This document shows positions 3,830-55,584 of a stretch of DNA of 55,584 bases, piece by piece. Every line of letters starts with the position of its first letter. Positions within the stretch are counted from its first letter, which is position 1. Where the stretch lies: NCBI GenBank assembly GCA_015065225.1, contig SVQR01000002.1, positions 1 to 55,584 on the forward strand, read 5' to 3'. The position numbers and the translations under genes were made by a program. This DNA comes from Oscillospiraceae bacterium. GTDB taxonomy: Bacteria > Bacillota > Clostridia > Oscillospirales > CAG-382. The notes beneath the pieces were generated by a model, which was not told the DNA's origin, ran no database searches, and saw only the letters and a program-made list of their open reading frames with translations.

Positions 3830-5289
3830 CATTCAATTCTGTCGCCTTTCTCCTTTTCTTCCCGGTAGTGCTGTTGTTTCACTTCCTTGTACCGACAAAG
3901 TACAGATGTGTTCCGCTTCTTATACTGAGCTACTACTTCTATGCCTGCTGGAACGTGGGACTTATGGGACTTATCATATTTACAACTGCGGTCTCATATG
4001 TTTCCGGCTTACTGCTTGAACGTACAGACAAAAAAAGCACCCGAAGACTTCTTCTTGCGATAACGCTCATCGCTTGTCTCGGTGTACTGTTCTTCTATAA
4101 ATATTTCGACTTCTTCACATCCACGGTAAGCTCGGTGATATCGCTGTTCTCCGGAGCTCCTTTCGCAGGTGTGTCACTTGAACTCATACTTCCCGTAGGT
4201 ATCTCCTTCTATACGTTCCAGACATTGTCCTATGTAATAGATGTATACAGAAAGAACATCCCCGCAGAGAAAAACTTTATTTACTACGCACTTTTCGTGA
4301 CATTCTTCCCTCAGCTTGTTGCAGGACCTATCGAGCGACCGGAAAATCTTCTTCCTCAGCTCAAGGCTCCTCACAGATTTTCAAAGGAAAACTTTGTCAC
4401 AGGCTCTGCAGTAATGCTGATAGGATACTTCAAGAAGATCGCTGTTGCCGATATAATAGCTCCTTACGTTAATTCGGTATTCAACAATGCTTCTTCAGCA
4501 ACGGGACTTGCCGTTATCCTTGCAAGCTGTCTTTTTGCCGTGCAGATATACTGCGACTTCTCCGGCTACACGGATATTGCGATAGGCTGTTCAAGGATAA
4601 TGGGCATAAAGCTCATGCAAAACTTCAACCGTCCTTATATGTCAAAATCCATAAAGGAATTCTGGTCAAGATGGCACATAAGTCTTTCTTCCTGGTTTAA
4701 GGACTACCTTTACATACCTCTCGGCGGCAACAGATGCTCAAAATTGCGCAATATGATCAATATTATGATAGTCTTTACCGTCAGCGGTCTTTGGCACGGT
4801 GCAAACATGACCTTTGTACTCTGGGGTGCACTCCACGGCTTCTATCAGATAATCGGAAGGGTAACTCTTAAAGCAAGAAACGGCTTTATCGGAAAGATCG
4901 GTCTTTCGGAAGAATCGTCTGTCATAAAGGCATGGAGGACATTTTTCACCTTCGTACTTGTAACCTTCGCATGGATATTCTTCAGAGCAAACAGCATATC
5001 CGACCTGGGTATACTTCTCTCAAAGCTCGTATCTCCCGGATCATTTACAGAGTTGGGCAACATCATGGGACTTACCCTCTCGTCATGTGTCGTTATAATA
5101 CTTGCGATAGTGCTTCTCGGCTTCTTCGACAGAAAGATGAACCCCACGGGAAGTTTTGAAGGTCTCAATGACAAGACGATAGCCTTCTCCGTCGGTGAAG
5201 CAATGCTCCTTATATGGACAGTACTTGCGGCATGGTTTATACTTTATTCCAAGGGCGTATCAAGCACGTTCATCTACTTCCGATTCTGA
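3826..5289 (+). CDS. MBOAT-family membrane O-acyltransferase (DltB/AlgI/PatA-like)
   Basis: 487 aa, polytopic. Family motifs FWSRWHISLSSWFKDYLYIPLGGN and SGLWHGAN (conserved His). Confidence 0.9.
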   Translation: MTFNSVAFLLFFPVVLLFHFLVPTKYRCVPLLILSYYFYACWNVGLMGLIIFTTAVSYVSGLLLERTDKKSTRRLLLAITLIACLGVLFFYKYFDFFTSTVSSVISLFSGAPFAGVSLELILPVGISFYTFQTLSYVIDVYRKNIPAEKNFIYYALFVTFFPQLVAGPIERPENLLPQLKAPHRFSKENFVTGSAVMLIGYFKKIAVADIIAPYVNSVFNNASSATGLAVILASCLFAVQIYCDFSGYTDIAIGCSRIMGIKLMQNFNRPYMSKSIKEFWSRWHISLSSWFKDYLYIPLGGNRCSKLRNMINIMIVFTVSGLWHGANMTFVLWGALHGFYQIIGRVTLKARNGFIGKIGLSEESSVIKAWRTFFTFVLVTFAWIFFRANSISDLGILLSKLVSPGSFTELGNIMGLTLSSCVVIILAIVLLGFFDRKMNPTGSFEGLNDKTIAFSVGEAMLLIWTVLAAWFILYSKGVSSTFIYFRF

Positions 5290-5305: not shown

Positions 5306-6757
5306 ATGAAGATCTTAAAAGCTATACTTACAAAAGTACTTCCCTTTGTCATAATACTCTTTATTCCCTTTGCTCTTATGGCGGCAATGTCAAAGAGCAT
5401 CCCGGATCAGTACGGCAACACATTCCTTGCGGGACTTAAGCCAAAGTATGAAAGACTTTACGGTACGGACAGCCCAAAAGTAATAGTTGTCGGCGGCAGT
5501 AATGTGGCATTCGGTATGGACAGCGAGCTTATGGAAAAACAATTGGGACGTCCCTGTATAAACTTCGGACTTTACGCTGACCTCGGTACAAAAGCGATGC
5601 TTGACCTTTCGGAAGATGCTGTCGGCAAGGGCGATGTTGTGATAATCTGTCCGGAGACGGATGCTCAGACATACTCTCTCCATTTTGATGCGAGAAATAT
5701 GTGGCAGGCAGTTGAATCCGATCCTTCTATGATAACAAGGCTTCCCTCGGATGATATGATGAAAGTCTTAGCTGCATTTCCCGACTACTACAAGGCGAAA
5801 AAGGAATTTTACAAAACAGGCACAACTCCCAACCCGGAGGGCGTATACAGAGCAGATTCCTTCAATGAGCTTGGTGACTTGATATATAAGAGAAAATACA
5901 ACGCCATGCTCTCATTTGTTGACGAAAACAAGCTCGTGAACCTTTCTCCCGACCTTATCACCGATGAATTTGCGGACTATCTCAACAATTATGCCAAAAA
6001 GGCACAGAAAAAAGGTGCGAAGGTATACTTCAGCTTTCCTCCCATAAACAACGAATCCCTCACCGAAGATACAACAGATGAGACTGTCTACGGATTCTAT
6101 AAGGCTCTTGTCGAAAAGCTTGATTTCGAGGTCATAAGCAGCATTGACGATTATATTCTTGACAAAGAGTATTTCTTTGACACAAACTATCATCTCAACG
6201 AAACAGGTGCGGAATACAGAACATCTCTTCTGTCAGCCGATATCCTGCGTGCGGAGGGTAATACTGCGATAAATCTCGATCTTTCATTCCCGATGGCTCC
6301 GATACGTCCGGATGACCTCTTTGGTTTTAATGTCAACGATGATAGGACAGGATTTTTTGAATTCAAGGAAGAAGAAATCGGCGGTCGGAAGGTCGCAATA
6401 CTTACGGGACTTACCGAAAGCGGTGCAAGTGAAGATCTCCTTACAATGCCGGTATCCTATAACGGACTTCCCGTTGTTGCAATAGAGGCGAACGCATTCT
6501 CAAAGAGCACTGTACTTGAGAGAGTGTTCATATCCGATAATTCGAATATCACATCCTTCAGAGACGGTGCGTTTGACAACTGTCCCACTCTCAGAAGTGT
6601 CGAACTGACAGTACCCCCCACACAGATAAAGGCATCTCCGAATGTCTTTGGTGAAACTGCAGAGAATGTAATGTTCTATGTAACAAAGGAGCTTTATTCC
6701 GATTACATGACAGACTATGAGTGGGGATCACACTTTGAGAGAATAACACTTATGTAA
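5306..6757 (+). CDS. Membrane-anchored DltD/AlgJ-like SGNH-fold protein with a C-terminal BspA-type leucine-rich repeat
   Basis: 483 aa. N-terminal TM helix. VVGGSNVAFG, and FDTNYHLNETGAEYR (paralogous to 1436-3538). C-terminal LRR LPVVAIEANAFSKSTVLERVFISDNSNITSFRDGAFDNCPTLRSVEL. SD AAAGGAG. Confidence 0.65.
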   Translation: MKILKAILTKVLPFVIILFIPFALMAAMSKSIPDQYGNTFLAGLKPKYERLYGTDSPKVIVVGGSNVAFGMDSELMEKQLGRPCINFGLYADLGTKAMLDLSEDAVGKGDVVIICPETDAQTYSLHFDARNMWQAVESDPSMITRLPSDDMMKVLAAFPDYYKAKKEFYKTGTTPNPEGVYRADSFNELGDLIYKRKYNAMLSFVDENKLVNLSPDLITDEFADYLNNYAKKAQKKGAKVYFSFPPINNESLTEDTTDETVYGFYKALVEKLDFEVISSIDDYILDKEYFFDTNYHLNETGAEYRTSLLSADILRAEGNTAINLDLSFPMAPIRPDDLFGFNVNDDRTGFFEFKEEEIGGRKVAILTGLTESGASEDLLTMPVSYNGLPVVAIEANAFSKSTVLERVFISDNSNITSFRDGAFDNCPTLRSVELTVPPTQIKASPNVFGETAENVMFYVTKELYSDYMTDYEWGSHFERITLM

Positions 6758-7555: not shown

Positions 7556-8812
7556 ATGACAACACAACAGATAATGCAAAACGCAAAGGAAGCGAAAAAA
7601 TCGGCAATCCTTTTAACAGAAGAAAAAAAGAATCAGGCTCTTACCGCAATGGCTTCGGCGCTTGTACTTGATACAGAAACGATACTTTCGGAAAACAAAA
7701 AAGACATCGAAAATGCAAGAGGCAAGATATCCGATGTCATGATAGACAGACTTAGCCTTTCAAGTGACAGGATAAAAGCAATGGCAAACGGTATAATTGC
7801 TGTGGCACAGCTTCCCGATCCATGCTCTGTGGTGCTTTCCGAGTATATAAGAGAAGATGGCCTTGAAATACGCAAAAAGTCCGTTCCCATGGGCGTTGTG
7901 GCGATAATATATGAATCACGTCCCAATGTTACAAGCGATGCGGTGGCACTGTGTCTGAAGTCGGGAAATGTTTGCATCCTTCGCGGAGGCAAGGAAGCAT
8001 ATAACAGCTCGAAGGCAATAGTCAACGCACTTCGCAAGGGGCTTCGTGCTTCGGGACTTTCCGAGGATCTTGTATCACTTGTTGACGATATTACACGTCA
8101 GAGTGCGACAGACCTTATGACAGGTGTCGGATATATAGATCTCCTCATTCCGAGAGGCGGTGCGGGACTTATAAAGGCGTGCACGGAAAATGCAAAGGTT
8201 CCCTGCATAGAAACAGGTACAGGCATATGTCATATATACATTGACAAGGATGCGGACATTGAAAAAGCGGTAAAGATACTGTACAATGCAAAGACATCTC
8301 GCCCTTCGGTATGCAATGCCTGTGAGGTATGTCTTATACATAAGGATATAGCGGAAGAAGTACTGCCGAGAATAAAAAAAGCCCTCGTTGACGAAAGACG
8401 AAATCGAGGCGAGATACCGGTAGAGCTTCGACTTTGCGACAAGGCGGCAAAAGTGATCGACGGCACAAAGAGCAACGATAAAGATTTTGATACGGAATTT
8501 CTCGATTATATTCTTGCGGTCAAGGTGGTTGACAGTCTTGATGAGGCAATAGATCACATCAGCATACACTCCACCCGTCACAGCGAAGCGATAATTACGG
8601 AGAATTCCGATGCCGCAGAGCTTTTTACAAGAAGCATAGACAGCTCGTCTCTGTACATTAATGCATCCACGAGATTTACCGACGGCGGTGAGTTCGGGCT
8701 GGGATGTGAGATGGGAATATCCACTCAGAGACTTCACGCAAGAGGTCCGATGGGACTTCGGGAGCTTACCACTTACAAGTATGTTATTACGGGTGACGGA
8801 CACATCAGATAA
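7556..8812 (+). CDS. proA: Gamma-glutamyl phosphate reductase
   Basis: ATG at 7556, after GTGAGG and just past the proB stop (7546-7548). The track ORF is extended upstream to 7502. Aldehyde-dehydrogenase-type ProA motifs (IYESRPNVT, NASTRFTDGGEFG). Confidence 0.9.
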   Translation: MTTQQIMQNAKEAKKSAILLTEEKKNQALTAMASALVLDTETILSENKKDIENARGKISDVMIDRLSLSSDRIKAMANGIIAVAQLPDPCSVVLSEYIREDGLEIRKKSVPMGVVAIIYESRPNVTSDAVALCLKSGNVCILRGGKEAYNSSKAIVNALRKGLRASGLSEDLVSLVDDITRQSATDLMTGVGYIDLLIPRGGAGLIKACTENAKVPCIETGTGICHIYIDKDADIEKAVKILYNAKTSRPSVCNACEVCLIHKDIAEEVLPRIKKALVDERRNRGEIPVELRLCDKAAKVIDGTKSNDKDFDTEFLDYILAVKVVDSLDEAIDHISIHSTRHSEAIITENSDAAELFTRSIDSSSLYINASTRFTDGGEFGLGCEMGISTQRLHARGPMGLRELTTYKYVITGDGHIR

Positions 8813-8882
8813 GATCGGAATGTTTCCGCCAAAGTATAAAATACATTCGGAATAATGCAGAATTGAACGAATATAACAAGAA

Positions 8883-8916
8883 AACGCCTAACCATGATGG
8901 TCGGGCGTTATTTTTT
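8883..8916. terminator. Bidirectional terminator between convergent proA and the MBL-fold gene
   Basis: Hairpin aacgcct...gggcgtt. A-run upstream, TTTTTT downstream. Confidence 0.6.
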
Positions 8917-8925
8917 GCTTGTTTT

Positions 8926-9681
8926 TCAGATCTCGTATGATCTCCAAAGCTCCGGAGATATAACATCCCCGTCAAAGCTTTCCTTTATTGCGGACACAGA
9001 CCTCTCCACCGCAGTCATCGGCCCATGTACAAGAAACAGCTTCTTTGTTCCGCTTTCAAGTGCTGTCCTTGCGGCATCGTAGGCACAGGAATGGCCGTTT
9101 GCCCAAAAATCATGTTCGGGAGAACCGACTCCCATGGAAAATTCGTGGATGACCGCATCGCATCCCTTGAAGAATTCCGCAATTTCGGGAGTATATCTTG
9201 AATCACCCAATATTCCAAGAGTTTTGTCTCCGATGGTGAATCTGTAACAGAGTCCTTTTATTGCATGAGATGATTCCAAACATTCAACATGAAGGTCATC
9301 TATATCAAAGCTGTCGCCGCCGTAAAGCTCGTGTACCGTCGGCATTGGTGCGCCTTCATAGTATTTATCGAACATACACATCATCTTTGCACGTTCAACG
9401 GTGTCGGCAATATCCTGATGATGACCGTAGATATGTGCTGTAGTCTTCCTTGTCTGCATCTTGTAGAACAGAAACAGAGGAAGTCCCATTATGTGATCGT
9501 GATGACAATGTGTTACAAAAACGTGTTCTATGTCATTCGGATCTATACCGATATCCGCAAGCGTAAGTGCCGATTTATATCCGAGATCCACAAGATACTT
9601 TCTGTCAATTATAAAGCATGGTGTATCCCCATGATGCTCATCCGGGATGCACTTTGATTTTCCGAGAAAGATTATTTCCAT
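8926..9681 (-). CDS. MBL-fold metallo-hydrolase
   Basis: 251 aa. HxHxDH motif (THCHHDH). Confidence 0.8.
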   Translation of the reverse strand: MEIIFLGKSKCIPDEHHGDTPCFIIDRKYLVDLGYKSALTLADIGIDPNDIEHVFVTHCHHDHIMGLPLFLFYKMQTRKTTAHIYGHHQDIADTVERAKMMCMFDKYYEGAPMPTVHELYGGDSFDIDDLHVECLESSHAIKGLCYRFTIGDKTLGILGDSRYTPEIAEFFKGCDAVIHEFSMGVGSPEHDFWANGHSCAYDAARTALESGTKKLFLVHGPMTAVERSVSAIKESFDGDVISPELWRSYEI

Positions 9682-9836
9682 ATATGATTTATCCTTAAGA
9701 ACAATTTTCTCATATTATACACCCGACTTGAAATATTGTCAAGCATCTATCGCAAAATTTCAACATATACTTAATAATATCACATTAATATCAGAAAAGC
9801 GGCAAAAAATCTTAACTCAATCTTTATATCGTGCAA

Positions 9837-31390: not shown

Positions 31391-31594
31391 AAGGATTTAG
31401 GATTTAGGGGATAGGATTTAGGGGATAGGGAAGGTTGGAAGCTTCGCTTCCTTCATTTGATTGAATTATAAAGTATTGATTTGATACTTGGTCTTATCAA
31501 TCAAAGCCCTCATTTATCAATTTTTAAATAAAAATGTAAATTGCGAAGCAATTGTCCTTCCCTAAATCCTAAATCCTATATCCTATATCCTACC
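31391..31594. repeat. Composite inverted-repeat element: G-rich arm, GCGAAGC hairpin, AT-rich core, GCGAAGC hairpin, C-rich arm
   Basis: Left arm 31391-31434 (ggatttagg/ggatagg units). Hairpin ggaagcTTCgcttcc at 31437-31451. Hairpin aattgcGAAgcaatt at 31539-31553. Right arm ccttccctaaatcctaaatcctatatcc... at 31556-31594. The arms are mutually complementary. Confidence 0.75.
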
Positions 31595-44936: not shown

Positions 44937-45824
44937 ATGCACTACTTACTTATCCTCGGTGCAAACACCCTTCTTGCACTGTGCTTTGTATTCCAGAAAA
45001 AATACCAGAGTATAGCAGGTACAAGTGTGAAAGCGACTCTTACCTTCAACGCTTTTGCAGGCCTTGCGACACTTGTGATATTCACACTTCTCGGACTTTG
45101 CGGCGTTTATACCATGCAGTTCTCTCCCTTCTCACTCGTAATGGCGACAGCGGCAACCGTCATCTGTCTTTCATATATGGTGATAGGCTTCAAGCTCCTT
45201 CGGGCAGGCAATATGCCGCTTTACACCATGTTCCTCATGACCGGCGGTATGCTTATACCGTACATATTCGGGCTTGGTTTTCTTGATGAAGAATTCTCTT
45301 GGCTGAGACTTGGCGGTATCATCCTCATTGTTGCGGCGGTAGTTATCTCCAATACAGGTACGGCAAACGCAACAAAGACACAGATACTTATGTGCGTTGC
45401 TGTTTTCCTTCTAAACGGTCTTATGTCCGTGACCTCAAAGGTACATCAGGCTGACATCAGCACACATTTCTCACCCGTAAATTCCGAGAGTTTTATTCTT
45501 ATAATGTCGATCGTGAAGATTGTATTCTGCTTTCCTGTCGCTTTTATACTGACAAAGAAAGCAAACGAAAGCATGAAGTCATGTGTCAACAAGAACACGC
45601 TTCTTCTCTTTATACTGACAGCAGCATCAGACAGTGGATCCTATTATCTCCAGCTCATCGGTGCAAAGAGCATTGATGCGGGTGTACTGTATCCTCTTGT
45701 TACTGCGGGAAGCATCATATTCTCGGCAGTTGCGGGAATGATCGCATTCCGTGAAAGACCTCCAAGGAATCAATGGATTGCGATGACAGTATGCCTTGCA
45801 GGTACCTGTATGTTTATCCGATAA
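44937..45824 (+). CDS. EamA/DMT-superfamily transporter
   Basis: 295 aa, about 10 TM helices in two repeats. SD GAAAGGA. The last roughly 45 nt belong to the downstream tandem repeat. Confidence 0.75.
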   Translation: MHYLLILGANTLLALCFVFQKKYQSIAGTSVKATLTFNAFAGLATLVIFTLLGLCGVYTMQFSPFSLVMATAATVICLSYMVIGFKLLRAGNMPLYTMFLMTGGMLIPYIFGLGFLDEEFSWLRLGGIILIVAAVVISNTGTANATKTQILMCVAVFLLNGLMSVTSKVHQADISTHFSPVNSESFILIMSIVKIVFCFPVAFILTKKANESMKSCVNKNTLLLFILTAASDSGSYYLQLIGAKSIDAGVLYPLVTAGSIIFSAVAGMIAFRERPPRNQWIAMTVCLAGTCMFIR

Positions 45825-46256
45825 ATTAGTTGACAAAGTGCATCTCTTGTGCTATTTTATATTTCCAATAACAATTCTTTTTATTACTCTTTTTTGCAAA
45901 AGAGTAATGAACAGCAATGATCATATGCCTTGCAGGTACTTGTTTGTTTGTCCGATAAATCAATTGACAAAGTGCATCTCTTGTGCTATTTTATATTTCC
46001 AATAACAATTCTTTTTATTACTCTTTTTTGCAAAAGAGTAATGAACGCAATGATCATATGCCTTGCAGGCACTTATTTGTTTGTCCGATAAATCAATTGA
46101 CAAAGTACATCTCTTGTGCTATTTTGTATTTCCAATAACAATTCTTTTTATTACTCTTTTTTGCAAAAGAGTAATGAACGGTAATGATCATATGCCTTGC
46201 AGGTACTTGTTTGTTTGTCCAATAAATCAATTGACAAAGTGCATCTCTTGTGCTAT
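45780..46256 (+). repeat. Tandem repeat, 3.5 units of about 134 bp (unit starts 45791, 45925, 46058, 46192)
   Basis: Each unit holds a copy of the EamA 3' end (atgccttgcaggtac...ccgataa), a TTGACA-17-TATTTT promoter-like box, and an 11-bp-stem hairpin attactctttt-ttgc-aaaagagtaat (45883-45908, 46017-46042, 46150-46175). Copies differ by a few SNPs and a 1-nt indel. Confidence 0.9.
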
Positions 46257-51157: not shown

Positions 51158-54100
51158 ATGACCAATACTTTCAAGAATCCGAATCAGATATACAAAGGCA
51201 CCGACTTCTGGATGCTCAACGGCAGAATTGAAGCCAACGAGCTTATAGCACAGATAGACAAAATGTATGAACAGGGCGTGCGCTCATTCATTGAACGTAC
51301 TTATATCGGTCTTCGCTCCGACTATCCCGGCGAGGACTTCCACAGAAAAACAAGGATAATCCTTGAGAGAGCTACAGAGCTCGGCATGACGGTTTTCCTT
51401 CAGGCAGGCTATATGCCGGAGGCGGTGCTTGATCTTCCGAGACACTTTGCTCTTGATTATCTTTATTCAAAGACTCCGGGTAATGTTGCCGAGGGTGAGA
51501 CTCTTATAAAGCATACCGACAGCATTGATATTGTTATGAAAAACTCCGTTACCTTCCTTAATATGTTCAATGAGGATGCGGTAAAGTTCTACATAAAGCA
51601 GAGCTACCAGGATATGTGGCAGGAATTCCGTGAATATTTCGGCAATACCGTTGAATCCATTTGGGTTGACGAGCCCAGCTACAATATGGCATATCTCCCC
51701 TGGTCTGCGGATATGCGTGATATTTTCATAAAGCGTTACGGATATGACCTCTTTGACAGAGCAAATCTTCTGTTTGAAGATGCGGAAGGATATGAAAAGG
51801 TACGTTACGACTACTGGACAATGGTTGAAGACAGACTTGCCGAGTGCTATTTCTCCATGATACGTCAGTGGTGCAACGAGAACGGTCTCAAATTCTCCGG
51901 TCACCTTATGATGGAGGATAATCTCCGTTCACAGATAAGCCGTGCCTGTGCGACAATGCCCTATTACCGTTTCTTTGATATTCCCGGCATTGACAAGCTC
52001 TGCGGTGAGATGAACTGGCGTTATGATGAGCTGAAGATCAACGGTCCTTGCTATAAGCGCATGGACATGGATATCACAACTCCCATACAGTGCTGTTCAG
52101 CTGCACGTCAGAACGGCCAGGAGCATATACTTGCGGAGATGTACGGCGTTACAAGCAACAACTTCAATTTCCGTGATATGAAGCATATGTTTGACCACTA
52201 TGCCGCTTTCGGTATCAATCACAGAAGCGTTCACGGTATATTCTATTCTCTCCACGGCAGAGGAAAGCGCGCTTATCCCGTATCCACAAATTACTATCAG
52301 CCCTATTTTGACAAGTATAACATTATGACGGACTACACGGCACGTGCAAGCTGGTTCATATCTCAGGGCGAGCCTTGCAGAAACATACTTGTCGTGCATC
52401 CGCTTGAAAGTGCATATATGTACTACAAGGGATACAAAGACGGCAAAGCACAGTCCATGCCCGAGCTCAAGCTCCTTGACGACAGATTCTACGATACTCT
52501 CCACAGCTTTACCTTTGATAAGGTTGAATTCGATCTGGGTGATGAGATGTCCATCCGTGACTTTGCAAAGACGGAAAACGGTATTTTCACGCTCGGCAAG
52601 ATGAATTATGATACGGTGGTACTTCCCTATCTTGTAAGCCTCAGAAGCTCTACTGTCACACTTCTTGAAAGATTTGCAAACGAGGGTGGAAAAATAGTTA
52701 TTCTCGGTAAGGCTCCGACACTTATCAACGGCGAAGCAGCGGATATTGCGGAAAGAATAGCATCTCTTCCCGGTGTAATATTCTGCGAAACTCCACAGGA
52801 TGCGGTACAGATATTCGAACGCAATGATTCATATGTACTTGACTTTGACAATGACGGTTCTGCCGTGATAGTAAATCACAGACGCGATGCCGACGGCAAG
52901 GATTGGTTCTTTATTGTCACGGATGAATGTGCGAAAAAGACAAAGTGCAATATCACATTCAAAGATACAAGAAAAATCTCCGTTTATAATGCGGAAAACG
53001 GTGAGATAACAGAAGCCGAGACATCCTTGCGTAATAACGGCACGCTGTTTGAATTCACTCTCCACGAGGGAGCAAGCATAATGCTTACCGCAGAAAAATG
53101 TGAAAGTGCAACGGTATACGGCAAGAATCCCGTACCTTCCGCAAAGAGCATAGTAAGTCTTGACGGCGGAAAATGGGATGTGACAACTCATCAACCCAAC
53201 GCACTGGTACTTGAATATGCACATTATAAAAAAGGCGACGGTGAATATACGAGAGATTATCCCATACTTGCCATCCACGATATACTTGTCGGCGAGGACT
53301 ATCACGGCAAGCTAACTCTTAAATTCGTATTCCGCACAGACAAAGCATTTAAAGGATTATCGCTTGCTCTGGAGGATGCTGATAAGCAGGAAATATTCTT
53401 CAACGGTGTAAAAGCAGACAAATATGACGGCAAGAGCTACTATATGAGCCGCGACTTCCACGTTGTGGATCTTCCGGATGTCTGCCGTGAAGGCGAAAAT
53501 ATAATAGAAGTCACAAGAGATTATGCACCGCTTGCAAAATTCAAGAGCTCTATCACATCCCTTTTCGAGAGTCTCGGAGGTGTGGAGCTTGAGCAGATGT
53601 ATCTTCTCGGAGACTTCGCGGTAAGATCAAAGACCGAATACACAAGAAACGGACTTACACGCTTCTCAAGGAACTTTATCCTCACAGACAGCCAAAAGAC
53701 AGCCTCGGAGGATCTCCTTGTATCGGGACTTCCCTTCTATGCGGGAACTGTCGAGCTTCGTAAAACCGTAAATGTATCCACAGCGGATGCGGACAAAAAA
53801 GCAATTCTCAACGTCGGTGAATTCCACGGCTGTGTTGCGGAAGTATATGCAAACGGCATCTTCTGCGGTAACATAATGTGGTTCCCCTACAGTGCTGACC
53901 TTACGGGAAATCTTCATGAGGGCGAAAATGAGATAGTGATAAAGCTCACCGGTACAATGAGAAATCTTCTCGGACCGTCACACAGACCTTGCGGAGATGT
54001 GGGACAGCTCTGGGCAGGATACTCCAATCCCAACGGTGCATGGCTCGGACACAATCCTGCGGATCCCGACAGAATATGGTATGAGGACAGAGCTTCGGAT

Positions 54101-54172
54101 ACGGATAAATGGTCTGACAGCTACTTCCTTGCAGGATTCGGCATCAATGATGTTACTGTAACATTTGAATAA
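51158..54172 (+). CDS. Large glycoside-hydrolase-like protein (GH106-like: N-terminal barrel plus C-terminal jelly-roll / galactose-binding-like domains); family uncertain
   Basis: 1004 aa with no signal peptide. The N-terminus (GTDFWMLNGRIEANELIAQIDKMYEQGVRSFIERTY) resembles the FW-x-WNG...E-x-GxxGF start of that family, recalled from memory only. SD GAAAGGA. Confidence 0.45.
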   Translation: MTNTFKNPNQIYKGTDFWMLNGRIEANELIAQIDKMYEQGVRSFIERTYIGLRSDYPGEDFHRKTRIILERATELGMTVFLQAGYMPEAVLDLPRHFALDYLYSKTPGNVAEGETLIKHTDSIDIVMKNSVTFLNMFNEDAVKFYIKQSYQDMWQEFREYFGNTVESIWVDEPSYNMAYLPWSADMRDIFIKRYGYDLFDRANLLFEDAEGYEKVRYDYWTMVEDRLAECYFSMIRQWCNENGLKFSGHLMMEDNLRSQISRACATMPYYRFFDIPGIDKLCGEMNWRYDELKINGPCYKRMDMDITTPIQCCSAARQNGQEHILAEMYGVTSNNFNFRDMKHMFDHYAAFGINHRSVHGIFYSLHGRGKRAYPVSTNYYQPYFDKYNIMTDYTARASWFISQGEPCRNILVVHPLESAYMYYKGYKDGKAQSMPELKLLDDRFYDTLHSFTFDKVEFDLGDEMSIRDFAKTENGIFTLGKMNYDTVVLPYLVSLRSSTVTLLERFANEGGKIVILGKAPTLINGEAADIAERIASLPGVIFCETPQDAVQIFERNDSYVLDFDNDGSAVIVNHRRDADGKDWFFIVTDECAKKTKCNITFKDTRKISVYNAENGEITEAETSLRNNGTLFEFTLHEGASIMLTAEKCESATVYGKNPVPSAKSIVSLDGGKWDVTTHQPNALVLEYAHYKKGDGEYTRDYPILAIHDILVGEDYHGKLTLKFVFRTDKAFKGLSLALEDADKQEIFFNGVKADKYDGKSYYMSRDFHVVDLPDVCREGENIIEVTRDYAPLAKFKSSITSLFESLGGVELEQMYLLGDFAVRSKTEYTRNGLTRFSRNFILTDSQKTASEDLLVSGLPFYAGTVELRKTVNVSTADADKKAILNVGEFHGCVAEVYANGIFCGNIMWFPYSADLTGNLHEGENEIVIKLTGTMRNLLGPSHRPCGDVGQLWAGYSNPNGAWLGHNPADPDRIWYEDRASDTDKWSDSYFLAGFGINDVTVTFE

Positions 54173-54180
54173 ACAATCAA

Positions 54181-54208
54181 GAGCTCGGCGGAAAACCGGG
54201 CTCTTTTT
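54181..54208 (+). terminator. Rho-independent terminator of the large GH-like gene
   Basis: 8-bp stem gagctcgg/ccgggctc (one G-U pair), loop cggaaaa, then TTTTT. Confidence 0.75.
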
Positions 54209-54230
54209 GCTGTGTTGATATTTTAAATTT

Positions 54231-54754
54231 GGGTTTGGCGGGGAGGCCCCCGCAGGCGGACTCGCGCACCGAGGTTTGGTTGACGTTCGGGCTTTTGTTC
54301 CCGCGATGTACCCCGTCCGACCGCCATAGGCGCAAGCGGTCGAACTTCTTCGTATATTGGATGCTGTGCAAATGGCAATGGCATTCCGTTGTACGTCGGT
54401 CAACCAACGACCGACGCACAAGGCATGGTGATTGTTGTGCTTCAAATTTATATTTATCGGTGTGATGTAAATTTCAAACAACGTACAAATCTGTAAGGGC
54501 GGGGCTCTACTCCGCCCGTAACCTCGACGATTGATCAACATCGGGAGGAGCAGAGCCCCTCCCCTACAGTTTTTCTGCAAATACGCAGAGGCATTGTCCC
54601 CTACAATGTTGTTTACAACACACCGTCGCCCCCCGAATTTGAAGGAGTTTGCCGCCGTGGGTTGGCGGTAAACGGGGAACATCGCGGGAACTAAAGCCGA
54701 GCGTCAGCCAAACCTCAGTGCGCGAGTCTGCCTGTCGGGGCTTCCCGACAAACA
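54231..54754. mobile_element. 524-bp GC-rich non-coding foldback element: MITE-like, or a large structured RNA (unresolved)
   Basis: Left arm 54231-54316 and right arm 54672-54754 are inverted repeats, roughly 85% matching by eye. TAAATTT flanks both ends (54224-54230, 54755-54761). The interior is packed with GC hairpins. There is no credible ORF. Composition contrasts sharply with the AT-rich flanks. Confidence 0.5.
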
Positions 54755-54784
54755 TAAATTTAAAGAGTAGCTTCCTCGCACACC

Positions 54785-55584
54785 TTACAAATTCTTCGCA
54801 ATTATCTTTGTCAGATTCTCCGCCATCTCCATAACTCCGTCGGGATTGGGATGTACAAGTCCGGAAGAAAGCTTTGCGGGAGTTTTAAGTACCGTCTTAC
54901 CGTTAACGTGAATGACATTCGGAAGTGCAAGCTCATCCGTTACTCTCTTTACTATATCACGGAACATCTCTGCTCTGCCGTCTCCGATTATGTCGCTTCT
55001 GCAATAATAAACATCTATCGCAAATATCTTGGAATCCGGATGTGCTTCCGCTATTGTCTTTACGAAATAACGCACTCTGCTTTCAAAATCATCCGGATCT
55101 ATACCGAGAATGTTTATGCCCATCTCAAGTGTCGCAAAATCAAACTCGCAATTGTGTGCGATATAGTCCGCCATCTCACGTTCAAGGCAGGCAGAGCCGG
55201 CAAAGCCGAAGTTCCATGCGTCCGCACCGAGGTTTGCCGCAACTCTCTCAACATAATTGTAGTACGGGTGAAGCGAAATGCTTCCGTGAGTAATTGACGA
55301 GCCGTAGGAAAGATACTTTTTCTCAGGGCACATATCCGCTGTCGGAAGGCTTATATCACCCTCGACACCCACTATCTGCGGTCTTACACCTCTTACAACA
55401 AGCCTTACCACATCGGGAGAAAATCTGTGACAGTACTCCTTGGCGATCTTTCTCATGTGCTCTATGTTATTACTCGGTATTATTGTAACCTCACATTCTC
55501 CCGCAAGCACCTTTGTGGTCTCCGGCCAATCGGCAACAAATTCACCGTAGTAAACGGTTATCTCACCTCTTACCCCTTCATCAT
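54785..55584 (-). CDS. SGNH/GDSL-family esterase, 5'-partial (N-terminus lies beyond the window)
   Basis: The frame stays open to the window edge (…DEGVRGEITVYYGEFVADWPETTKVLAGECEV…). SGNH block I YGSSITHGS. C-terminal GLVHPNPDG. Confidence 0.7.
   Translation of the reverse strand, partial: DEGVRGEITVYYGEFVADWPETTKVLAGECEVTIIPSNNIEHMRKIAKEYCHRFSPDVVRLVVRGVRPQIVGVEGDISLPTADMCPEKKYLSYGSSITHGSISLHPYYNYVERVAANLGADAWNFGFAGSACLEREMADYIAHNCEFDFATLEMGINILGIDPDDFESRVRYFVKTIAEAHPDSKIFAIDVYYCRSDIIGDGRAEMFRDIVKRVTDELALPNVIHVNGKTVLKTPAKLSSGLVHPNPDGVMEMAENLTKIIAKNL

Follow-up and report, generated by a model that had tools for sequence, protein, structure and literature searches.

Two head-to-head repeat units form a foldback element, probably a non-autonomous mobile repeat, downstream of a GH106 gene of an uncultured Oscillospiraceae bacterium

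Introduction

The first 55,584 nt of contig SVQR01000002.1 (assembly GCA_015065225.1, an Oscillospiraceae bacterium of the Clostridia), here called the window, contain a foldback element of 524 bp at positions 54231 to 54754, downstream of a gene for a GH106 protein and facing the convergent gene of a GDSL lipase. The initial annotation had described this element as two arms of about 85 nt around a hairpin-rich interior and had left two readings side by side, a large ornate non-coding RNA or a MITE (miniature inverted-repeat transposable element) or foldback transposon. The question raised by this locus is whether the DNA is an RNA gene, a mobile repeat, or something else, such as a decayed protein gene or the scar of a local rearrangement. 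As argued below, the element consists of two copies of a smaller directional unit, and it probably represents some 530 bp of non-coding repeat DNA that was inserted in this lineage only and belongs to a non-autonomous, MITE-like mobile family.

Results

Anatomy of the element

Two related, directional units of about 230 to 300 nt make up the element in a head-to-head arrangement; the left one is read on the minus strand, the right one on the plus strand (Table 1). Lone units with a single arm occur at two other loci, L011 in GCA_054264975.1, a metagenome-assembled genome (MAG) of the same species, and L010 in the Eubacteriales MAG JAZUOO01. This indicates that the basic entity is a directional unit of about 230 nt and that the arm is its 3′ module. 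The left unit and the lone unit at L011 5075-5297 were 91.9% identical over 223 nt without a gap (blastn; window 54463-54241, minus strand). The single arm of L010, at 4070-4155, was 88% identical to the right arm, which in turn was 92% identical to the arm of L011 (blastn), and the sequence upstream of the L010 arm was homologous to the left half of the window element on the minus strand.

A covariance model, R1, was built from the left unit and the units of L011 and L010 (alignment A4, 227 positions, 52 pairs). It gave two matches in the window, one per strand, although the right unit was not in the model. The right unit has kept its 3′ arm as well as the leader at its 5′ end (UAAAUUUCAAACAAC...), while its middle part has diverged or contains insertions; in the R1 alignment, its hairpin P1 is replaced by the longer hairpin listed in Table 1. 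The region of the hairpin that adjoins the right arm had a 17/17 blastn match to L010 3966-3982. At the centre, where the two 5′ ends face each other, positions 54444-54460 on the plus strand are an internal copy of the terminal motif described below (AAATTTATATTTATCGG) and are complementary to the right end. The resulting inverted repeat of 21 nt (86%) means that 54444-54761 is itself bounded by inverted motif copies and AAATTT. The central 19-mer could be aligned with the sequence upstream of the units of L011 and L010, with about 13/19 and about 13/18 identities, respectively, as read from the alignment.

Inverted-repeat arms of about 85 nt had been claimed initially, and a repeat search, a comparison of the element with itself, and a global alignment agreed on them. 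The repeat search returned 54241-54290/54697-54746 (50 nt, 86%) and 54290-54316/54672-54698 (27 nt, 93%), and also an inverted repeat reaching into the flanks (54222-54249/54737-54764; 28 nt, 82%). Blastn of the element against itself aligned 103 nt at 83.5% (E = 2e-22), and in the global alignment of the arms, 86 columns matched, 12 were mismatches, and 7 contained gaps, close to the hand count made before. The arms are nevertheless not terminal inverted repeats of the transposase-recognized type, as the R1 matches and the one-armed units elsewhere indicate, but the 3′ modules of two inverted units, and the closing duplex of about 85 bp is a by-product of this arrangement. The terminal hairpins support the two-unit anatomy: the left one (GCGGGG-AGG-CCCCGC) and the right one (GTCGGG-GCTT-CCCGAC) differ in a way that keeps each local hairpin and weakens the duplex between the arms. 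The bias of arm mismatches toward G-U pairs on the plus strand was reproduced (5 versus 2, previously counted as 5 versus 1), in numbers too small to carry weight, and since each arm is part of a different unit, such a bias of the inter-arm duplex was judged to carry no information.

All six interior hairpins listed by the initial annotation were found, two of them (gggcgg/ccgccc and gggagg/cctccc) as the two sides of the single long hairpin at 54487-54573, for which Rfam returned nothing but sub-threshold matches to microRNA (miRNA) precursors. The description “strikingly GC-rich” fits the arms (61 to 67%; window, 44.5%; immediate flanks, about 40%) and not the entire element, since its centre (54420-54490) is AT-rich with 31% GC. 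The minimum free energy (MFE) of the whole element was −304 kcal/mol for the plus and −292 kcal/mol for the minus strand, with z scores of −17.6 and −16.9 versus shuffles, a stability far beyond chance. The element occupies the convergent gap, as had been noted, between the terminator of the GH106 gene and the stop codon of the lipase gene (54785).

Table 1. Coordinates of the features of the foldback element in the window
Feature	Position	Strand	Description
Left unit	54228..54454	-	Full-length copy of the directional repeat unit of ~227 nt; R1 270.8 bits, model positions 1-227
Right unit	54464..54759	+	Divergent full-length copy; R1 82.6 bits, E ~1e-26, model positions 1-227
Centre of symmetry	54444..54474	.	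Units meet head-to-head, 5′ ends facing: AAATTT - 19 nt - AAATTT
Left arm	54231..54316	-	Conserved 3′ module of left unit, from inverted-repeat pairs, consensus structure, and pair counts; long-range stem, inner hairpin CGGG/CCCG, terminal hairpin ~54237-54254
Right arm	54672..54754	+	Conserved 3′ module of right unit; terminal hairpin ~54733-54750
P1 hairpin of left unit	54394..54416	-	Minus-strand loop GTTGGTT conserved; compensatory stem changes versus L010
Long hairpin	54487..54573	+	32-nt arms, 84% complementary; fills P1 position of right unit
Hairpin GTTTGCCGCC / GGCGGTAAAC	54647..54673	+	Loop GTGGGTT, the P1 loop of L010 and L011; directly adjoins right arm
Left junction TAAATTT	54224..54230	.	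AAATTT at 54225-54230; motif regular-expression match starts at 54225
Right junction TAAATTT	54755..54761	.	AAATTT at 54756-54761; minus-strand regular-expression match 54761-54745
Spurious 234-aa open reading frame	53978..54682	-	Called by gene finders; overlaps 3′ end of GH106 gene by 195 nt on the opposite strand
Intrinsic terminator of GH106 gene	54179..54205	+	Context; terminator scan

Presence and absence at the GH106/lipase spacer

The GH106 protein upstream of the element is encoded on 23 contigs. The seven of them that were fetched and span the site (L001 to L007, from rumen-type metagenomes and of the window lineage) all carry the element at the same place with 100% identity, and none of the six related loci that were fetched (L014, L015, L016, L017, L018, and L019) has it in the orthologous GH106/lipase spacer. 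L014 and L011 belong to one and the same MAG, which means that a conspecific genome does not possess the element at this site, yet has a unit upstream of its his operon. Up to the stop codon of GH106, L014 and the window share 97% identity; L014 then continues with an unrelated spacer of 213 nt and returns to high identity about 4 kb downstream (from L001 17059 onward), the flanks being 96 to 98% identical. Because the flank was replaced in L014, an alignment across the site is meaningless and a clean empty site is not available from it. In L017 and L018, with GH106 proteins that are 74 to 76% identical, the spacers comprise 61 and 48 nt with one terminator hairpin each.

The surroundings of the site vary among strains. 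L001 13017-17058, corresponding to the window from 54173 onward, and L014 13017-17407 form a segment of about 4 kb that is just 71 to 82% identical, with the break exactly at the GH106 stop codon; it contains the spacer, the GDSL lipase gene, and the gene for an SLH-domain surface protein, that is, a hypervariable or recombined cell-surface cassette. The SLH allele of L002 is also different (1052 versus 784 aa). Spacers 3′ of GH106 harbor duplicated fragments of the GH106 3′ end at L015 3357-3413 (88%) and, by eye, at about L014 13062-13115, and at L016 9199-9284 the 3′ end of the lipase gene survives as a remnant (85% identity), at a locus with no intact lipase gene. These duplicates and the remnant indicate repeated rearrangement at this convergent junction. 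The element marks a strain-variable junction beside a cell-surface (SLH) and lipase cassette. Farther upstream, between the gene for a helix-turn-helix regulator and GH106, L014 contains, at 7846-9765, an additional gene of 585 aa with no Pfam match and an open reading frame (ORF) of 37 aa, both missing from the window.

Units at unrelated loci

A 21-mer common to both arms was present in 1 of 185,579 species-representative genomes, with one occurrence, that in L010. Here, the unit is located between the convergent terminators of an ABC-transporter gene and rpmE. L011 was reached by a protein search with the spurious ORF of the element, and its lone unit is in the leader of the his operon, ahead of hisZ. 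The three insertion contexts, between a GH106 terminator and a lipase stop codon, between two convergent terminators, and between two promoter-like sites, are not syntenic. The promoter-like sites that bracket the L011 element are TTGAAA-17-TATAAT at 4887-4915 and TTGACT-17-TAAAAT at 5353-5381, both with an upstream TG; an insertion here may have separated the his operon from its upstream promoter or may have brought in a promoter. In L010, the 3′ terminus of the unit, composed of the 3′ strand of the long-range stem and the terminal hairpin, is present in four tandem copies with a period of 26 nt (4129-4232), the last of them degenerate.

The known family comprises only four distinct units, and the family elements of L011 and L010 have a size of about 350 to 430 bp. 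No further copy was found in the approximately 75 kb scanned of the element's own genome (the window plus 10 kb on each side), and phage and plasmid collections, searched with the element by blastn, contained no similar DNA. A search of viral contigs with four exact patterns, including the terminal motif, returned nothing beyond one chance match (L013). The exact-pattern match L012 in a metagenome contig was rejected as a chance match of 26 nt within a coding region of 68% GC. Two independent Logan contigs (SRR7031497 and SRR7032251) both stop 77 nt into the left arm (L008 7877-7953 and L009 3959-4035); the two arms share no exact match able to break a graph with k = 31, and these ends hint at a further copy or variant in those samples with the outer arm in common. 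With respect to the expectation for a MITE of many copies with different flanks, the different flanks were there, in three genomes, and the copies amounted to one locus in each genome region sampled, about 75 kb of the element's own genome and a single match of the 21-mer in the L010 MAG. The family is small, previously undescribed, and present in a few MAGs of uncultured rumen or gut Eubacteriales (Clostridia).

Terminal motif and AAATTT junctions

The shared terminal motif is AAATTT followed by RKRTTTRKCGG(G), about 17 to 25 nt in total. Exact matches to the motif expression in 225 kb were confined to window positions 54225 (+), 54444 (+), and 54761 (−) and to L011 5094 (−), and weaker copies were assigned to L011 4960 (+), the right end of the L011 element, and both ends of the L010 element (alignment A7). 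Read in this way, each of the three elements has inverted motif copies at its outer ends and an internal copy that abuts the AAATT(T) at the 5′ end of a unit. The copies of L010 are the weakest and degenerate, and a repeat search at seed 6 gave no inverted repeat in L010. Within L011, the motif bounds a foldback of 135 nt (4960-5094) with inverted repeats of 27 nt (81%) and 18 nt (100%), flanked by AAATAT and AAATTT.

In the window element, each of the four module junctions has the sequence AAATTT, including the internal ones at 54444 and 54469, and AAATTT adjoins internal and terminal motif copies in L011 as well; neither the right end of the L011 element nor the outer ends of that in L010 have it. 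The TAAATTT reported outside both ends of the window element was there. In its proposed role as a target-site duplication, it is indistinguishable from a part of the terminal motif, and AAATTT is palindromic and also occurs at internal junctions. AAATTT may be a palindrome that is preferred as a target and becomes duplicated when the element inserts, or it may form the outer edge of the terminal repeat. A palindromic target duplicated in this manner would explain insertions that are adjacent and in opposite orientations.

Structure and covariation

When the four units were compared across the 52 consensus pairs, 94% of the cells were paired and 19 of the 52 pairs had changed on both sides. None of 500 shuffles reached this covariation and a slid control was not close either; the result is provisional with four units and an alignment (A6) fitted to the model. 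Of the substitutions that separate the left unit from L011, eight affect paired sites and none of these leaves L011 unpaired. Three of the eight are of the G-U type and would be A-C mismatches if the structure were on the opposite strand, and in the terminal hairpin, two double compensatory pairs account for four. Compared with L010, three stem pairs of P1 (columns 36-68) have been exchanged on both sides while the loop GUKGGUU was kept. This pattern indicates a constraint acting on a folded single strand, the sense strand of the unit, and both RNA and single-stranded DNA (ssDNA) would fit.

Evaluation of these changes needs to consider that quasi-palindrome correction during replication can yield double compensatory changes without selection, and such a palindrome correction can mimic part of the covariation signal. 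Moreover, by MFE the G/U-rich antisense strand was slightly more stable in every comparison; the functional strand is thus not identifiable from the MFE, which was dropped as evidence.

Coding capacity, known RNA families, and transcription signals

The initial annotation saw no credible ORF in the element. Gene finders call an ORF of 234 aa in every contig that carries it, and annotation pipelines turn this into a hypothetical protein of 133 to 234 aa; the ORF nevertheless shows no coding signal. It had no match in Pfam, and in libraries of 5.8 and 1.8 billion proteins its sole credible relative was the translation of the same element in L011. The candidate homologue P0123, a protein of 1260 aa (E = 1.6e-4, 31% identity in ten stretches), was judged to be spurious. 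The 18 substitutions between the window and the L011 copy are distributed 5/7/6 over the codon positions, and 11 changed codons are nonsynonymous versus 5 synonymous.

No match at gathering thresholds to Rfam 15 was obtained for the window, L010, or L011, and at E <= 10 or E <= 5 just sub-threshold matches to hairpins of miRNAs and small RNAs appeared. A scan for tRNAs and tmRNAs (ARAGORN) gave nothing. In agreement with the lack of a SigA promoter stated before, there was no sigma-70-like promoter on either strand of 54000-55000, and none upstream of the L010 unit, where one weak match is on the opposite strand. U-tract terminators following the units were not found. The promoters on both sides of the L011 element are not conserved at the other loci. 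With no Rfam 15 covariance match and no conserved promoter or terminator, the suggested membership in a class such as ROOL, GOLLD, OLE, or HEARO was not upheld.

Other features of the window

A tandem repeat with a unit of 134 nt (3.5 copies, 95% identity) is located at 45790-46256 between genes for an EamA-family protein and a polysaccharide deacetylase; gene coordinates upstream differ between L001 and L002 by exactly 134 nt, so the copy number of this repeat appears to be strain-variable. The product of 8926-9681 (minus strand) is a protein of the metallo-beta-lactamase fold. The precomputed annotation of the contig lists PF23023 (Anti-Pycsar Apyc1) for it, and a Pfam scan at E <= 1e-5 yielded only Lactamase_B families. 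Around the start of mutS, a 14-nt unit is repeated 2.3 times just upstream (31398-31429) and CCTAAAT 4.6 times just inside the ORF listed from 31541 (31561-31592).

Discussion

On present evidence, the element is an ordinary, if unusual-looking, mobile repeat. Its assignment to a non-autonomous, MITE-like family, which is probable, follows from the lineage-specific insertion, the unrelated contexts, the shared inverted terminal motif, the AT-rich junction motif, the lack of coding capacity, and the patchy distribution. The mobile half of the original pair of readings has held up in this respect, with absence from six of six orthologous sites, units at two unrelated loci, and a terminal motif in common. 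Members of the family would be moved in trans by an enzyme that recognizes the terminal motif, its hairpin, or both, and would be inserted into AT-rich sites of the AAATTT type beside terminators or promoters. The composite in the window may have originated from two insertions in opposite orientations into the same palindromic target, or from a single insertion after which the arm was duplicated in inverted orientation. The element probably acts or moves as a folded single strand, either ssDNA or a transcript, because the hairpins of the unit keep their pairing by compensatory and G-U changes on one strand. Being located between the stop codon of the lipase gene and the sole recognizable terminator, it is probably also co-transcribed on the minus strand as a passenger of the lipase 3′ untranslated region, to which it would add a very stable hairpin stretch of about 0.5 kb.

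Several observations weigh against a MITE-like family. No transposase or autonomous partner was found in the 55-kb window or next to the L010 and L011 units, and a transposase-bearing parent with matching ends, for which a search had been suggested, was not present in the window or the fetched loci. The apparent copy number, one locus per genome sampled, is low and unlike that of typical MITEs, which usually are also AT-rich (PMC10969869), whereas the arms contain 61 to 67% GC; the third, internal copy of the terminal motif is likewise atypical. There is no clean empty site, since the spacer and the lipase/SLH region of L014 are a divergent allele, and this leaves the boundaries of the insertion and a target-site duplication unproven. 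Matching direct repeats are lacking at the outer ends of the L010 and L011 elements. Covarying internal hairpins are not expected for a MITE of the DDE type and point to a function of RNA or ssDNA. The distinct units known number just four, and their alignment was fitted to its model.

The covariation leads to an alternative in which the unit is a gene whose product would be a new, structured non-coding RNA about 230 nt long, with mobility secondary or absent, the 105-nt 3′ module as the functional core, and the composite as two diverged copies in convergent arrangement. Helices kept by compensatory and G-U changes on one strand, the conserved P1 loop GUKGGUU, the low copy number, and the position of the L011 unit downstream of the near-consensus promoter TTGAAA-17-TATAAT are in favor of such a gene. 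On the other side, folding of the antisense strand is no worse by MFE, and quasi-palindrome correction may produce double compensatory changes without selection. Promoter and terminator are not conserved over the three loci; the L010 unit sits between convergent terminators with no promoter, and the window had no promoter match either. No Rfam family matches, the loci are not syntenic, the unit is absent from the conspecific orthologous site and apparently from the species-representative genome, and the motif copies and AAATTT junctions resemble hallmarks of mobile DNA. An RNA gene of this kind is therefore unlikely, though the least so among the alternatives. A combination of both views, in which the unit encodes a new class of structured RNA carried on a mobile element, either guide- or omega-like together with a nuclease or recombinase encoded elsewhere, or self-contained and regulatory or catalytic, with the 105-nt 3′ module as its core and the foldback as two such genes placed head-to-head, is a rather speculative option. 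If the covarying 3′ module were indeed an RNA working with a trans-encoded enzyme, the element would represent a new non-autonomous, RNA-bearing element.

A mobile single strand is also the basis of another alternative, palindrome-associated transposable elements (PATEs) of the IS200/IS605 type, which would be moved as ssDNA in trans by a Y1 HUH transposase and inserted 3′ of an AAATT(T) transposon-adjacent motif (TAM), the 3′ module doubling as the scaffold of a TnpB-type omega-RNA. The unit is directional, its 5′ end differs from its 3′ end, one strand has a hairpin close to each of them (P1 and the terminal hairpin), AAATT(T) is directly 5′ of every unit, the wobble pattern is strand-specific, and the 3′ end is the best-conserved part. 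A palindromic target would account for the head-to-head insertion, and gene-less PATEs that encode omega-RNAs have been documented (PMC10055086). Opposed to this, the whole elements, all three of them, are still bounded by outer inverted motif copies, which are not a feature of IS200/IS605 elements, and no tnpA or tnpB is located near any copy in the sequence fetched. No complementarity between a guide and the TAM or the transposon-encoded motif was recognized by eye, without a computational test, and the 3′ ends differ. The 19 nt upstream of AAATTT are conserved too, which argues that AAATTT is not simply flanking target DNA. Membership in the PATEs appears improbable on balance.

A local, non-mobile palindromic rearrangement, that is, a recombination scar at the edge of the hypervariable lipase/SLH cassette, would account for the location of the element exactly where the 97% identity to L014 drops to 71 to 82% for about 4 kb, and also for the GH106 3′-end duplicates of L015 and L014 and the lipase remnant of L016 in the spacers of relatives. 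Homologous units with shared terminal motifs at unrelated loci mean that the sequence was not generated locally, and L010 and L011 leave this origin very little probability. A decayed protein-coding gene, to which the ORF called in all carrying contigs might point, is refuted for practical purposes by the lack of a Pfam match or of any credible homologue save the L011 copy, by substitutions spread evenly over the codon positions with 11 of the 16 changed codons nonsynonymous, by a 1-nt indel versus L010 within the arm, and by the overlap of 195 nt with the GH106 gene on the opposite strand.

Comparison with known systems

The large ornate RNAs (ROOL, GOLLD, OLE, HEARO/omega-RNA, and raiA) share with the element a size of about 0.5 kb, many hairpins, hosts of the Firmicutes or rumen type, and the fate of being missed by routine annotation. 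The 0.5-kb ornate shape is, however, an artefact of two inverted copies in the case of the element, and its actual unit of about 230 nt is non-syntenic and patchy, with no covariance match and no conserved promoter or terminator. PATEs (PMC10055086) are likewise gene-less, with asymmetric ends, subterminal hairpins, a motif at the 5′ junction, a structured and conserved 3′ module, and strand-specific folding; the element differs from them by its inverted terminal motifs, by the lack of a TnpA or TnpB partner among the sequences fetched, and by conservation beyond the putative TAM.

Among the short repeats of bacteria, the pneumococcal BOX elements (boxA-boxB(n)-boxC) are similar as modular structured repeats, and the array of four 26-nt copies in L010 resembles the variable boxB copies; there is no sequence similarity, the module sizes are different, and BOX is a high-copy repeat. 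REPINs and bacterial interspersed mosaic elements (BIMEs), doublets of repetitive extragenic palindromic (REP) sequences mobilized by REP-associated tyrosine transposases (RAYTs), have the same doublet architecture, an inverted pair of a directional hairpin unit that also occurs singly, and are intergenic, often between convergent genes. REP units, in contrast, have a size of about 20 to 40 nt and a high copy number, whereas the units described here comprise about 230 to 300 nt and no cognate RAYT was seen in the sequence analyzed.

MITEs, such as QMITE1/2 of Coxiella, Correia elements, and type II elements, are typically smaller than 500 bp without coding capacity (PMC10969869). The composite of 524 to 538 bp is slightly above this size, and its relatives of about 350 to 430 bp are within it. 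The GC-rich arms, the 85-nt arm duplex resulting from the unit dimer, the additional internal motif, and the low apparent copy number set the element apart from MITEs, as do hairpins that covary, which is not required of DDE-type MITEs, and a parent insertion sequence not being known for it. Shared with MITEs are the non-coding nature, a length of a few hundred base pairs, and inverted terminal motifs, which at about 17 to 25 nt are within the range of about 4 to 30 bp usual for terminal inverted repeats and are present on either side of the window element and, as weaker copies, at the ends of the L011 and L010 elements. Also shared are AT-rich intergenic sites near terminators or promoters, a stable fold, possible direct repeats of 6 to 7 bp, and variable presence, here in seven contigs of the window lineage and not in the GH106/lipase spacers of L014 to L019. 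The element demonstrates by this comparison how two inverted structured repeats can mimic a single large ornate RNA or a MITE with long terminal inverted repeats.

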